Below, piece after piece: positions 4,745 through 11,757 of a stretch of DNA of 64,000 bases. Under the pieces are notes generated by a model that did no database searches, had not been told where the DNA came from, and saw only the letters and a program-made list of their open reading frames with translations. Within the stretch, counting starts at the first letter, position 1. Each line of letters begins with the position of its first letter. A program made the translations under genes and the position numbers. The stretch comes from Candidatus Heimdallarchaeota archaeon. GTDB taxonomy: Archaea; Asgardarchaeota; Heimdallarchaeia; JABLTI01. The DNA lies in contig JABCTZ010000007.1 of NCBI GenBank assembly GCA_018238155.1, positions 64,001-128,000 on the forward strand. Direction: 5' to 3'.

Positions 4745-7700
4745 TTATTTCGTGAGAATTTTATTTAGAAATTGTCCCGTTAGCGAATCTGAATTCTTAA
4801 TTATTGATTCAGGGGTTCCTTGTGCAACAATCATTCCTCCCTTGTCTCCTCCTTCGGGTCCAAGATCAATAATCCAATCTGCATATTTTATCACTTCAAG
4901 ATTATGTTCAATTACAATAACTGAATTTCCTGTTTCTACTAATTTGTTCAAAATATTGAGAAGCTTATGAACATCAAATGCTGCTAATCCAACTGTTGGT
5001 TCATCTAGTAAGTAGAGTGTTTTTCCCGTTTGAGGTTTACACAATTCAGCAGCTAATTTTACTCTTTGAGCTTCACCACCAGATAAGGTCGTAGCAGATT
5101 GTCCTAATTGTATATATCCCATTCCCACGTCTTGCATCACCTTAAGAATTTTAGCTATTTTTGGTTGGTTGACAAAAAAGGTCAATGCTTCATCGATTGA
5201 CATATGTAAAACATCTGCAATTGTTTTATCTCTGAATTTAACCTTTAGTGTTTCCCTGTTGAACCTTTTACCTTTACACTCTTCACAAATTATCTCAACA
5301 TCACTTAGGAACAACATCTCAACACGTTTAACACCTCTTCCTCTACAAACTGAACATCGTCCTTTAGAACTATTATATGAAAATCTAGAAAGAGTATACC
5401 CTCTTATTTTCGATTCAGGCATACGTGCAAAGAGTTTTCTAATGGGTTCAAACACTCCAGTATATGTTGCCGGATTTGATCTTGGAGTTCGTCCTATTGC
5501 ATCTTGGTTGATAAGTACTACTTTGTCAAGATGCTCTAATCCATCAAAAGATGAGTAATTGTTTGCTATTTTCTTTGATCTATGATATGCCCTACTTAAT
5601 ATTTTATGAAGAGTTTCTATTACCAAAGAGCTTTTACCTGAACCACTAACTCCTGATATTACTGTAAAAACTCCTAAAGGAAATTTAACTGTGATATTTT
5701 TCAGATTATTCTGTTTTGCTCCGGTAAGCGTTAAATATTTTTTACCTTTCCTTCTTTTTTCTGGTATTGGTATGCAATCTTTTCTACTAATGTACTTTCC
5801 TGTTAGAGATTTCTTATTTGCTATAATTTGTTCGAGTGTGCCTTGAGCAACAATTTCTCCACCTAGTTGACCTGCACCTGGTCCTAAATCAATGATATGA
5901 TCTGCACTTCTGATTGTATCTTCATCATGTTCTATTACAACTACCGTGTTACCAAGTTCTTTCAATTCTCTCAAGGTGTTAATTAATCTTGCATTATCTC
6001 GAGGGTGTAATCCTATACTAGGTTCATCTAAAACATATAATACCCCCACTAACTTGTTTCCAATCTGAGTTGCTAAGCGAATTCTTTGAGCTTCACCTCC
6101 TGAAAGTGTTCGTGATTCTCTATTCAAGGTTAGATATTCTAAACCAACATCTTTCAGAAACTTTAATCGATTCAATATTTCTTCGATTAGACCTTGAGCA
6201 ATAATTTGATCTGCTCCACCAAAAGAAAGGTTTTCAAAGAATGTATAAGTTTCACCCAAAGACAACTCTGATATTTGTTTAATATTGAATCCTGCTATTT
6301 TAACAGCAAGAGTAGTTGGTTTTAACCTAGCTCCATTGCATTCTGAACAAATTTGAATATTGGTAAATCTGTCCATCCAATTTATCCACCACATAGAAGC
6401 CGTATTGGATATCCACCGCTCATAAATTGGAATCAAACCACTAAATTCACTTTCACGTTCAAATGTATAGGAATAACTCTTTCTACTAACATCTCTAATA
6501 AGTTTGATTCTCCGATTTGTGCCATAGAGTAAAATATTATATTGTTCTTTTGTGAAGTCTTTTACGGGCGTATCAATGGTAAAACCAAATTCTTTTCCTA
6601 CACTTGTAATGAGTGATAGTATCCAACTATTTTCGTCTTTATTCTCTGTTATCGGTCCGAACGCACCACCTCTTATTGATTTGTTCGAATCCTTGACAAA
6701 TAATTTTGGATCGATGGATTTGATTGTTCCCAATCCGGCACATTTTTCACATGCACCTACATGAGAATTAAATGAGAAAATCTTCGGTGAAAGTTTTATT
6801 GGCAATTTTATCTCACAGTCAAAGCATTCTCTTTTTGTGCTGAATGTTAGAACAGTTCCGTTAACTTTTATCTTTACTACACCATCACTTTTAATTAGCG
6901 CAGTTTCAATTGAATCAAATAATTGCCCTTTATCCTCAGTGCTTACATTTAATCTATCAACAATAAGATCAATGGTATATGCCACATCTTTATCGATAAC
7001 AACATAATTGCTTTCTTTATTCTTGTGAGAGAATTTTACATCTTCAAGTATCGTCTCTTCTCCATTAACGATTATCCTAGTGAAGCCCTCTCGAATAAGT
7101 TCTTTGATCAATGGTTTGTAATTTCCTTTTGAGTTCTTAACTAGCGGAGCGATAATTTTGATTTTTATTCCTTCACCTAACTCGAGTGTTTTGTGTACCA
7201 TTTCTTGTAAGGGTGTTGGTGAAATATCTTTCCCACATTGCGGACAATATGTTATACCAACTGTAGCAAAAAGAATACGAAGATAATCGTTAATTTCAGT
7301 CATTGTTCCCACAGTAGAACGAGGGTTTCTTCCAGCAGATTTTTGATCAATTGATATTGCTGGTGATAATCCTGTTATTTTCCCTACATCTGCACTATCC
7401 ATTCTTCCTAAGAATTGTCTTGCATATGTGGATAATGATTCGACAAACCTTCTTTGCCCCTCCGCGAATATTGTATCAAGTGCTAGTGATGATTTCCCTG
7501 AGCCACTTACTCCTGTTATTACTGTTAGAGCATTTTTTGGTATGTGAACATCGATGTTTTTCAGATTATTCTTTGTTGCTCCAAAAACAGATAGGTGCGT
7601 TTTTTCTTTTGGATTGCTACTCCGTCTAGCTTCAGTGCTTTCTATTAAGTTACCTTCTTTAGTAGAAGGTTTGACAAGTAAGCTAGTATCTAATGCTTTC

Positions 7701-10630
7701 TTAAGAGCTTGTCCAGTATATGATTCTCTGTTTTTAGCTACATTCTCAGGTGTTCCTTGAGCAACTATTTCTCCGCCAAATTCTCCTCCTTCAGGTCCTA
7801 AGTCTATTACCCAGTCAGAACTTTTGATCATGTCAAGATTATGCTCTACTACCACTATAGTATTTCCAGCATCTACTAAACGATTTAATACAATTAGTAA
7901 ATTGTTAATATCAAAGGAATGCAATCCAACAGTAGGTTCTTCTAATAGATACAATGTTCTACCAGTTGCTTTTTTACTTAATTCTCTTGAAATCTTGATT
8001 CTTTGAGCTTCTCCACCACTTAAAGTGGTTGATGATTGTCCAAGTTTAATGTATCCTAATCCTACATCTTGAAGCGTTTGAAGAATCTTGACTATCTTTG
8101 GATGATCTTTGAAGAAGAGAAGAGCTTGATTAACAGTCATATCAAGTATTTCGAAGATATTTTTCTCTCGATATCTTATTTCGAGCGTTTCTCCACTAAA
8201 TCTTTTACCCCGACAAACTTCACATTCAACTTCAACATTAGGTAAGAATTGCATTTCTACTCTATTGTATCCTAATCCTCTACAAGCTTCACATCTTCCT
8301 TGCTTGGTATTAAAGGAAAACCGGCCTTTTTTGAATCCTCGTGCTTTGGCCATTGGTAAAGAAGCAAAAAAATCTCTAATATGATCAAGTAGTTTTGTAT
8401 ATGTTGCAGGAATGGAACGAGGCGTATACCCGATAGGTGATTGTGAAATCGAAATAACTTTGTCTAGATGTTCTATACCGGTTATTTTTTTATGTTTTCC
8501 CGGTTTAGTTTTTGCTCTATTCAATTCTCTAGCTAACGAAGTCCAAAGTACATTGGAAACTAAAGAACTCTTTCCAGAACCACTCACTCCTGTGACACAA
8601 ATAAAAATCCCTAATGGGAACTCAACATCTACGTCTTTGAGGTTATTCTCTGCAGCACCAATTACTTTGAGGACAGCACCTTTTCCTTTTCGCCTTTTCT
8701 TTGGAATCTCAATTTTCTGTTTTCCAATTAAAAATTGACCTGTTATTGATCTATCTACTTTCCCTACTATCTCAGCAGGTCCTTCAGCAATGACTTCTCC
8801 TCCAAACTCTCCTGCTTTTGGACCAATGTCAATTAACCAATCTGCAGCAAGCATTGTATCAATATCATGTTCTGAAACTAAGACAGTATTACCTTTATCA
8901 CGCAAAGTTTGCAAAGTGTCAATGAGCTTCAAGTTATCCCTATTATGCAATCCGATACTTGGTTCATCTAGAATATATAGAACGTCCTCCAGACCAGAAC
9001 CAATCTGAGTTCCAAGTCTAATTCTTTGACCTTCTCCACCTGATAAAGAATTTGCTCTTCGATTGAGTGTTAGGTAAGGTAATCCAACATTATCTAGAAA
9101 TGTTAATCGCATTTTAATTTCTTTTAATAATCCTTCAGCAATCTGTTTTTCAACATCAAATAATTTAATTGAATCAAAAAATTCAATACACTGTGAAATC
9201 GCCATACTTGAGAGTTCGTTAATACTTTTTCCTTTAAAAATAACCGATCTGCTTTCTTTTCGAAGTCCCGAACCCATACAATCAGGGCAATTAGTTGGTC
9301 GAGTAAAGTCTTGAATCATATCACGAATGTATTGCGATGAAGTCTTCTCAAAACGCTTCTTCATTTGGGGGAGTAACCCTTGATATTTAATTTTTGCAGT
9401 TCCTCTACCCTTTCCCTTTGTTTCATTTCCCCAATGGAATTCATATTCTACAAGTAAAGGTTTCTTTGGACCATAGAAGAAATCATTCCATTGTTGTTCC
9501 GTTAATTCTTTCAATGGTGTATAAACAGTAAAACCTAGTTTCTCTACAACGGCTTTGATTCTATTAATACCTAAATTTGATACTCTAAATCGTTGAGTAT
9601 CAGGATTATAATCAGCTAATGCTCCTTCAATTAATGATAAATTACTATCTACAATTAACAATTTAGGATCATATTCAATGGTGGTTCCTAATCCTTTACA
9701 AGTCGAACACGCACCATGAATTGTATTAAATGAAAAATTTCTGGGTTCCAATTTCGGAAAGCTTAGATTACATTTCGGACATGCAAGGTGAACTGAAAAT
9801 AGTATCTCATATTTTGTTTCCTTCTCCAAATCTACTTTCTTCTCTTTCTTTTTAATCTGGGATAATTTTCTCATAGCATTTGATGCATCAGAAGTTGTTA
9901 TAGTAACTAATCCATCAGCCATATTTGTAGCATGTTCAATAGATTCTACCAATCGATCTTCTTCTTGTCTACTGACAGTAAATCTATCGATAACTGCCTC
10001 TATTGTATGTCTATAATATCTCGAGAGGGTCATTTCTTCTGAGGTTAGTTCATCTAATCTTTTAGTTTCATAATCGATTCTTACTCGAGAGAAACCTGCT
10101 TCTAGTAGTCCCTTTAGTTCTTTTCGATATTCTCCTTTTCGATCTCGAATAATAGGTGCGAGAATCATTATTTCTTTATCGGCATAAGTAATCAATATTT
10201 GATCTACAATATTTGTAATTGTTTGAGCTTTGATCTCAATTCCACAATTTGGGCAGTGGGGAATACCTACTCTAGCATATAACACTCTTAAGAAATCATA
10301 AATTTCTGTTACAGTACCTACTGTACTCCTCGGATTATAGCTGGTTGTTTTTTGACTAATTGATATTGTGGGCGATAGACCTTCTATAGATTCAACATCT
10401 GGTTTTGTCATCTGAGACATAAATTGTCTTGCATAAGCTGAAAGGGATTCTATATACCTTCTTTGTCCCTCTGCAAAAATAGTATCAAAAGCTAAAGATG
10501 ATTTTCCTGATCCTGAAACACCTGTAAGCACAACAAATTTATCTCTTGGAATTTCTAAATCAAAATTTTTGAGATTATGTTGTTTAGCACCTTTGATTTT
10601 TATATATTCTCGAATCTCCTCAGAAGTCAA
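4745..10630 (-). CDS. uvrA: Excinuclease ABC subunit A, double-length (two tandem UvrA modules)
   Basis: [10 protein letters not shown] occurs four times, LSGGExQR four times, and EGQRR(Y/F)xESLS twice; Zn fingers; 1961 aa. Confidence 0.97.
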
Positions 10631-10914: not shown

Positions 10915-11640
10915 TTGAGAATAATGGAGCTAAATAAAATCTATTACGAAGATTGTATCTCAAATATACATAAGAGAGTACCTGAGAATTCCATTGATTT
11001 AATCATCGCAGATCCTCCCTTCGGAATAAAATTCGATGGAAAAGGGGCACAATATAATCGAAAAAGTAAATTTGTAGTATCAGGTTATTCTGAAATAACT
11101 CAAGCAAACTATCTTGAATTTTCTCGTTCTTGGTTAAAGGCAATCTATCCTGTTTTAAAAGAAACTGGAAGTGCATATATTGTTTCAGGGTGGACTAATT
11201 TGAAGGATGTGCTAATAGCAATTGATGAAGCAGGTTTTATAACTCAAAATCATATAATCTGGAAATATCAATTTGGCGTGTTTACCAAAAGGAAATATGT
11301 AACAAGTCATTATCACATTTTGTTTCTTATAAAAAATAAAAAGAAATATTTTTTTAACAAAGTTGATCATTACCCTGAAGATGTTTGGGAAATAAAGAGA
11401 GAATATCTCCCCGGCAAAAAAAAGAATTCTACAAAATTACCTGATAGGCTTGTCGAAAAATTAATACAATATTCCAGTAAACCTAATGATGTCGTATTGG
11501 ACCCTTTTATGGGCAATGGAACAACTGCAGTCGCTTGTATTAAATTACAACGAAATTATGTTGGGTTTGAAATAAATCCATTTGCTCAAGAAATCATTGA
11601 CAATAATATTGCAAACGCAAAAGCTTTGAAACTGGATTAA
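10915..11640 (+). CDS. Site-specific DNA methyltransferase (N4-C/N6-A, beta class), orphan
   Basis: ADPPF catalytic motif precedes VLDPFMGNGTT SAM motif; likely start ATG 10924. Confidence 0.92.
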   Translation: MRIMELNKIYYEDCISNIHKRVPENSIDLIIADPPFGIKFDGKGAQYNRKSKFVVSGYSEITQANYLEFSRSWLKAIYPVLKETGSAYIVSGWTNLKDVLIAIDEAGFITQNHIIWKYQFGVFTKRKYVTSHYHILFLIKNKKKYFFNKVDHYPEDVWEIKREYLPGKKKNSTKLPDRLVEKLIQYSSKPNDVVLDPFMGNGTTAVACIKLQRNYVGFEINPFAQEIIDNNIANAKALKLD

Positions 11641-11722
11641 TTGTGAGTTCGCCCTTGACTCTTTCTACATCATTGACAGGAGTATCCTTTCTCTGTAAAG
11701 TTTAAGGTATGAGCGAACTCGT
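11639..11722 (-). ncRNA. Candidate box H/ACA guide sRNA (K-turn hairpin plus ACA)
   Basis: Minus strand: 8-bp stem GAGUUCGC/GCGAACUC immediately followed by ACA; internal pocket; K-turn UACAGA...AAUGAUGUA; pocket complementary to LSU rRNA H69 consensus; BRE/TATA-like element upstream. Confidence 0.7.
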
Positions 11723-11740
11723 GTATATCTTTACTCTTAT

Positions 11741-11757
11741 CTTAAAGGGTTTTTTTA
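11741..11757 (-). promoter_or_regulatory. BRE-TATA-like promoter for the candidate H/ACA RNA
   Basis: Minus strand reads an A-run, then CCC, then TTTAAG, about 20-25 nt upstream of the hairpin. Confidence 0.45.

Follow-up and report, generated by a model that had tools for sequence, protein, structure and literature searches.

Does a short intergenic gap in a Heimdallarchaeial genome contain the gene for a small RNA (sRNA) that guides modification of 23S rRNA, and if so, which nucleotide would be modified? This question is raised by a stretch of 64,000 nucleotides (nt) from Candidatus Heimdallarchaeota archaeon (contig JABCTZ010000007.1, positions 64,001 to 128,000), called the window in the following. 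For this window an earlier note, based on the sequence alone, had proposed an unannotated H/ACA-like guide RNA directed at helix 69 (H69) of the large subunit (LSU) rRNA. The host genome is a 4.08-Mb assembly of 46 contigs from an Asgard archaeon and belongs probably to the order Gerdarchaeales of the class Heimdallarchaeia. This GTDB order was named for the assembly JABLTI01, a congener of the host, and has been renamed Gerdarchaeales; the class is the archaeal class which is currently placed nearest to the eukaryotes (PMC11193907). Our analysis indicates that the locus probably encodes an independently transcribed, single-hairpin guide sRNA of the classic box H/ACA type, that H69 is its most likely target and that U1923 (E. 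coli numbering) is the best candidate for the modified uridine. The result adds an uncatalogued, well-supported predicted box H/ACA guide to the Heimdallarchaeia and predicts pseudouridylation of the H69 stem in the uncultured host lineage.

The predicted core of the RNA is a hairpin of 79 nt on the minus strand of the window, which extends from position 11720 to position 11642, from the first G of GAGUUCGC to the last A of the ACA box. The real transcript probably extends beyond this core by a few nt at either end. The earlier note had reproduced the minus-strand sequence exactly and had located the feature correctly, but its limits (11639-11722) were 2 to 3 nt too wide on each side. The 5' strand of the lower stem P1 (GAGUUCGCUC, 11711-11720) forms 10 base pairs (bp) with the 3' strand GGGCGAACUC at 11645-11654. 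This basal stem had been drawn with 8 bp, but the next UC pairs with GG (GA in relatives). P1 is followed by the 5' pocket strand (11700-11710), containing the antisense box UACCUUAA (11709-11702), and by the 5' strand UUUACA (11694-11699) of the upper stem P2, which forms 6 bp, including one U.G pair, with UGUAGA at 11664-11669. On top of P2 a predicted kink-turn (K-turn) module (11670-11693) consists of the 5' GA at 11693-11692, the C-stem and loop at 11691-11675, a 3-nt AAU bulge at 11674-11672 and the 3' GA at 11671-11670. The C-stem opens with a G-C pair, and the tandem G.A pairs start 6 bp above the pocket; the published rule places the K-turn or K-loop 5-6 bp above the pocket (PMC2377435, PMC7991803). 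The 3' pocket strand (11655-11663) contains the antisense box GAGUCA (11661-11656) and completes the pocket, whose two strands measure 11 nt (5') and 9 nt (3'). Box ACA (11642-11644) lies directly 3' of P1. All structural hallmarks of a classic archaeal H/ACA RNA are present, i.e. a lower stem, a large internal loop, an upper stem, a predicted K-turn and an ACA directly after P1, and the layout of archaeal L7Ae/Cbf5 guides that had been recognized at this locus, including the K-turn with its bulge and tandem G.A pairs, was confirmed. The minimum free energy of the fold is -24 kcal/mol (z = -4.27), and none of 200 shuffled sequences folded as well.

Using BLAST and two covariance models, we identified one orthologue each in nine of ten congeners and in the only genome that represents the sister genus, which corresponds to 10 of the 11 other genomes of the family. 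The search of Asgard relatives with a covariance model, a check proposed together with the original claim, gave scores of 55-111 bits in 11 genomes including the host. With the same methods no orthologue was detected in 71 genomes from the six other families of the class, and a pattern of fixed geometry which ignores the stem sequence matched only the same relatives in about 185,000 species genomes. In the model-fitted alignment of the 11 sequences 95.5% of the cells are paired, compared with 36-48% when the partners are slid. Compensatory changes occur in 15 of the 22 pairs, a number reached by none of 500 shuffles; all orthologues belong to one family, and these covariation counts are not independent events. 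P1 contributes eight compensatory pairs out of ten (99% of cells paired), and four of the six pairs of P2 covary. From an unfitted MAFFT alignment RNAalifold recovered both stems unchanged and counted 11 covarying pairs.

The distribution of variable and invariant positions follows the predicted anatomy. P1 and P2 vary in sequence among the orthologues and the apical stem varies in both length and sequence. The K-turn core GA...(A/U)AUGA with the closing G-C pair of the C-stem is invariant in all 11 sequences, and the same is true for box ACA. Within the pocket, ACCUUA on the 5' strand and GAGUC on the 3' strand are invariant (11 of 11), with the first G of GAGUC always at 17 nt from ACA; the dinucleotide that separates GAGUC from P2 is variable (AA, CA, AU, CC). 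The RNA was assigned to the minus strand because its many G.U pairs would become A.C when read on the plus strand and because the model scores the minus strand at 95-111 bits and the plus strand at 22-27 bits.

The pocket had been claimed to be complementary to H69, and the 23S rRNA of the host itself contains the exact complement: UGACUC-UC-UUAAGGUA occurs once, on contig C1 of the host genome (G000), and this 16-mer, UGACUCUCUUAAGGUA at G000:C1:136067-136082, is matched perfectly nowhere else in the genome. GAGUCA pairs with UGACUC over 6 bp and UACCUUAA with UUAAGGUA over 8 bp, giving 14 Watson-Crick pairs with only U-C left unpaired. The context GGGAGU-AACUAUG-ACUCUC identifies the site as the 3' strand of H69. 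The loop of this helix is universally conserved, and its 3' strand in the host is presumably the same as in yeast and other eukaryotes. Variants found among the orthologues keep or improve the pairing: the base after ACCUUA is A or G and forms A-U or G.U with the target, GAGUCG introduces a G.U pair, and GAGUCAU adds a pair.

H69 reached a score of 13.0, compared with at most 7.75 at any unrelated rRNA site. The 23S rRNA of the host ends at the contig end (model position 2717), and about 270 nt of the 3' end were checked using the complete 23S rRNA of a relative. The tRNAs offered at most 9 G.U-tolerant pairs with the guide. For an estimate of chance matches only Watson-Crick pairs were counted, as controls had matched equally well under a G.U-tolerant scoring with free offsets. 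At least 14 Watson-Crick pairs arose by chance in 3 of 7,221 decoy hairpins tested against reversed rRNA and in 3 of 4,792 in the reversed genome, i.e. with a frequency of about 5e-4 per hairpin.

A comparison of the H69 3' strand between families of the class, made with the genomes whose 23S rRNA is assembled, revealed ACUCUC in the family of the host (f1, three of three), AGCUUC in family f2 (16 of 16) and ACCCUC in family f3 (one genome with an assembled 23S rRNA). GAGUC is complementary to the f1 form only, and the RNA is present in f1 only. These sequences strongly support that guide and rRNA target change together between families, which would be a clean natural example of such a joint change in sister families.

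Some minor observations concern the orthologues and the rRNA. The differences in the H69 3' strand between the Heimdallarchaeial families (in the host at G000:C1:136062-136083) sit in an otherwise invariant region. The 16S (G000:C1:70404-71894) and 23S (C1:134052-136836) rRNA genes of the host are located on one contig about 62 kb apart and are separate, not part of one operon. One orthologue is carried by L057 (DATKZI010000048.1), which is titled Candidatus Bathyarchaeia; the genome is placed in the genus of the host, so the title looks mislabelled. In genome G047 of family f2, where H69 no longer matches GAGUC, L066:32-95 (+) may be a remnant of the RNA. It combines a 10-bp lower stem resembling that of G010 with the 3' pocket strand AAGAGUCAA; it has neither K-turn nor ACA, scores 20 bits, lies at a non-syntenic position and may have arisen by chance. 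A partial model match at G000:C11:105076-105107 lies antisense within a long open reading frame (ORF) and was judged to be due to chance.

The two uridines of the target U-C-U-C correspond to E. coli positions 1921 and 1923 and to yeast positions 2264 and 2266, and they are located 15 nt (U1921) and 17 nt (U1923) from ACA. Both spacings, as well as the yeast equivalence, had been given correctly by the earlier note. In yeast 25S rRNA the pseudouridines (Psi) 2258 and 2260 are equivalent to E. coli 1915 and 1917, whereas Psi2264 and Psi2266 are part of the H69 stem, and the position of Psi2266 contacts the P-site tRNA and affects maintenance of the reading frame (PMC2794176). Judged by pairing, the target is most likely U2022 of the host 23S rRNA (numbered from G000:C1:134052, where the Rfam LSU match starts), which is equivalent to E. 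coli U1923, yeast Psi2266, human Psi3749 and S. islandicus Psi2066. U1923 is favoured because maximal pairing leaves it as the sole unpaired uridine and because the GA of GAGUC is invariant. We therefore rank U1923 first and U1921 second; both could be modified. In S. islandicus the equivalent U2066 is a mapped Psi which is served by a 6-bp duplex and lost upon deletion of sR148 (PMC11077068).

Transcription, assembly of the ribonucleoprotein (RNP), catalysis and the exact uridine are inferred. By analogy with the solved structures of archaeal H/ACA RNPs, L7Ae would bind to the K-turn, and the PUA domain of Cbf5 would hold the ACA and the 10-bp lower stem, together with Nop10 and Gar1. Both pocket strands would then pair with nascent 23S rRNA along the H69 3' strand and the linker after it. 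The U-C would stay unpaired at the top of the pocket and U2022 would be presented to Cbf5, 17 nt from ACA. Genes for Cbf5 (DKCLD, 54.5 bits), Nop10 (61.1 bits) and L7Ae (95.9 bits) are present in the host genome.

Several points weigh against a guide RNA acting on U1923. The match for Gar1 is weak, with 26.8 bits below the Pfam cut-off of 29.3. The 3' strand measures 19 nt from the base of P2 to ACA, compared with 14-16 nt in archaeal guides, and two guide bases on each pocket strand remain unpaired above the guide-target helices. The distance between target uridine and ACA is 14-16 nt in classic archaeal guides; functional Pyrococcus guides showed spacings of 14-15 nt, and predicted interactions with 17 nt were inactive (PMC2377435). 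In most orthologues a G 3' of ACCUUAA could pair with the C beside the target U, which would leave one unpaired base. Finally, the descriptor scans of the host revealed no other clear single-hairpin H/ACA RNA that could serve to calibrate the geometry. On the other side, stem-loop 2 (SL2) of sR-h45 from H. volcanii works at both 17 and 19 nt, and both uridines of its unpaired UVUN target are modified in turn (PMC7075261). The 17-nt spacing together with the widened pocket makes the RNA a natural test case for the strictness of the Cbf5 ruler.

The distance to ACA also provides an argument for the closest rival, in which the same RNP acts on the same rRNA segment but the canonical ruler selects the base for modification, at a distance of 15 nt from ACA (host U2020, E. 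coli U1921, yeast Psi2264). The 3' helix would then be limited to GUCA with UGAC, and U-C-U(-C) would stay unpaired. A spacing of 15 nt is canonical for archaea (PMC2377435, PMC7991803) and UNN trinucleotides are tolerated (PMC2377435). In addition, orthologues with a G after ACCUUAA could start the 5' helix at the C and leave exactly U-C-U; modification does not require the target uridine to be unpaired, and among unpaired U the one nearest the 5' end is favoured (PMC7075261). However, the 3' helix would shrink to 4-5 bp, and in the G011 orthologue to 3 bp, though the 3' helix is the more important one (PMC2377435). A different hairpin of family f2, described below, bears on the same point. 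Its boxes GCUCA (5') and GUUA (3') are invariant whereas the four bases 5' of GUUA vary, which shows that invariance tracks pairing with the target and argues that all of GAGUC pairs: its GA, invariant in 11 of 11 sequences, would pair with U1921-C1922, while the equivalent positions at the pocket top vary in the f2 sibling. Position 1923 is moreover a U in all three H69 types and position 1921 in f1 only, and the documented archaeal Psi is the equivalent of 2266, not of 2264 (PMC11077068). We regard modification of U1921 in place of U1923 as unlikely. Somewhat better, although still doubtful, are the chances of a third reading, in which a single classic hairpin makes both Psi of the H69 stem, 15 and 17 nt from ACA, with U-C-U-C as a UVUN sequence like the target of sR-h45 SL2. 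If this is true, one Heimdallarchaeial guide with an enlarged pocket would reproduce Psi2264 and Psi2266, for which eukaryotes use two snoRNAs, and the H69 sequence of the family would have co-evolved with the guide.

The remaining explanations dispense with modification or with the RNA itself. The non-canonical 19 nt between the base of P2 and ACA would suit a K-turn RNA which binds L7Ae, perhaps also Cbf5, and pairs with H69 without modifying it, as an assembly chaperone or a regulatory L7Ae-binding element; a Cbf5-associated K-turn RNA without guide regions does exist in S. islandicus (PMC11077068). Yet a plain L7Ae-binding element needs none of the features which are conserved here, namely ACA, the length of P1, the pocket and both antisense boxes. 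Furthermore, the locus does not lead a gene, since one of its neighbours is convergent and the other divergent, and H/ACA guidance to the same site has been proven in S. islandicus (PMC11077068). We consider such a role quite improbable. Least credible of all is the absence of an RNA gene, with the hairpin ending the plus-strand transcript of the convergent methylase gene, as a terminator or a 3'-end structure, or being a chance palindrome. The hairpin does start only 2 nt past the methylase stop codon, but with A.C in place of G.U and 22-27 bits in place of about 100 the plus strand fits poorly; a terminator needs neither the internal loop nor the K-turn nor the ACA, all of which are conserved, and the promoter-like element is conserved on the minus strand.

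Among known RNAs, the predicted U1923 guide most resembles the classic archaeal single-hairpin sRNAs. Pab21/Pf1, Pab91 and Pf9/Pab160 of Pyrococcus and sR115 and sR435 of S. islandicus share with it one hairpin, a bipartite pocket, a 6-bp upper stem, the K-turn and the ACA (PMC2377435, PMC11077068). These Pyrococcus and S. islandicus guides are also directed at rRNA, but at different sites. The present RNA has no detectable sequence or Rfam relationship to the classic sRNAs, and its 3' pocket strand plus lower stem comprises 19 nt instead of 14-16. At the level of the target the closest relative is S. islandicus sR148, which serves the Psi2266 equivalent with a 6-bp 3'-guide duplex (PMC11077068). 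By its description sR148 stands apart, since it lacks a lower stem, an ACA and a 5' guide and serves U2060 of the H69 loop as well. Like the predicted guide, SL2 of sR-h45 is an archaeal H/ACA hairpin directed at H69; it works at 17 and 19 nt from ACA and depends on ACA (PMC7075261). In contrast, SL2 is part of a two-hairpin RNA and targets the H69 loop (E. coli 1915/1917), and in the present RNA maximal pairing leaves only U-C unpaired. The yeast snoRNAs snR84 and snR3 and the human guides for 28S Psi3749 and Psi3747 address the same two H69 stem positions (25S Psi2266 and Psi2264; PMC2794176), but they are two-hairpin H/ACA snoRNAs without K-turns and each serves one site. Common descent with the eukaryotic guides does not follow from these similarities and could hardly be demonstrated. 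For archaea the target site is already known from Sulfolobus, where it is modified under H/ACA guidance, and no new mechanism is involved. Our literature search retrieved no paper on H/ACA guides in Asgard archaea.

The Rfam searches agree with the lack of a catalogued relative. No match was obtained across the window at the gathering thresholds, and at E <= 10 the locus showed no H/ACA or snoRNA family, the only hit being a chance C/D match beside it. The best score for HgcG (RF00064) in the whole genome was 10.7 bits. Two other RNA classes were rejected. A box C/D sRNA was discarded because nothing resembles a C or D box except CAGAG and AAUGAUGU, both internal and part of the K-turn, and because the two ends are joined by 10 Watson-Crick pairs, with ACA after them. 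An atypical H/ACA RNA without lower stem and ACA, i.e. the Pyrobaculum type or RNAs such as sR148, sR109 and sR563, was discarded because the covarying 10-bp stem and the invariant ACA are present.

The predicted gene for the RNA is located within an intergenic gap of 272 nt. The convergent neighbour encodes an N6/N4 DNA methylase with its stop codon at 11638-11640, and the ACA end of the hairpin starts 2 nt beyond this codon; the divergent neighbour is a steroid-5-alpha-reductase-like gene. The same two genes flank the RNA in every orthologue. An upstream TATA had been noted before, and a TATA-like box is indeed present and conserved in 10 of the 11 orthologues. In the host this promoter-like element (11739-11756, minus strand) consists of a run of A at 11756-11750, resembling a B recognition element (BRE), and of the TATA-like TTTAAGAT at 11746-11739, and is located 26 nt upstream of P1. 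In the orthologues it reads RAAAA...TTTAA, lies 26-29 nt upstream of P1 and is followed by ATAC or ATACTT. By its resemblance to the consensus, the purine run with TTTAA would fit an archaeal BRE/TATA promoter. Just upstream of the methylase gene an ORF of 1,961 amino acids (window 4745-10630, minus strand) was found, and this adjacency is kept in the relatives.

A search of the whole host genome with a strict K-turn H/ACA descriptor yielded 17 matches, compared with 6 in the reversed genome, of which only the H69 RNA looked genuine. A target-first scan without the K-turn requirement gave 227 matches versus 234 in the control and no further guides. A regular expression for a guide to the H69 loop of the host (5' GAGUC, 3' GUUA) returned no convincing match. 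In family f2 a different K-turn hairpin with a lower stem of 10-12 bp and a covarying upper stem was detected in 26 of 31 genomes (L064:1501-1583 (+) in G051, orthologues L071-L096). Its invariant boxes fit the f2 H69 loop region CUAAC-UA-UGAGCU, a match read by eye, and it is probably a guide for the equivalent of Psi1915 at about 15 nt, although in most copies the lower stem is not directly followed by ACA or ANA. The likeness to the G051 hairpin had suggested that AGAG at the pocket top is a structural element; this idea was rejected, since the equivalent positions vary in the f2 alignment. In family f3, L068:1501-1586 (-) of G074 is a K-turn hairpin ending in ACA, which also contains AAUGAUGU and has AGAGUUAG in its 3' pocket strand.

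Two further stretches of the host genome, both outside the window, are worth recording. At G000:C21:79925-80197 (+) a GC-rich island of about 270 nt comprises three hairpin units, each followed by ACA, and the string GCGAUGA precedes the 3' strand of an upper stem more than once; the Rfam HgcG model does not detect the island. The island is likely a multi-hairpin H/ACA RNA. In its unit 1 the pocket is compact (6 x 6 nt) and the upper stem lies about 15 nt from ACA, which suggests that the enlarged pocket is a trait of the H69 RNA and not of the lineage. For this unit and for the G051 and G074 hairpins the simple scorer gave no decisive rRNA target; H69 is unassembled in the G074 genome. At G000:C17:137531-137624 (-) a regular expression matched a short GC-rich stretch with GUUAAUGAUGAUAA, which may be a C/D-box sRNA.

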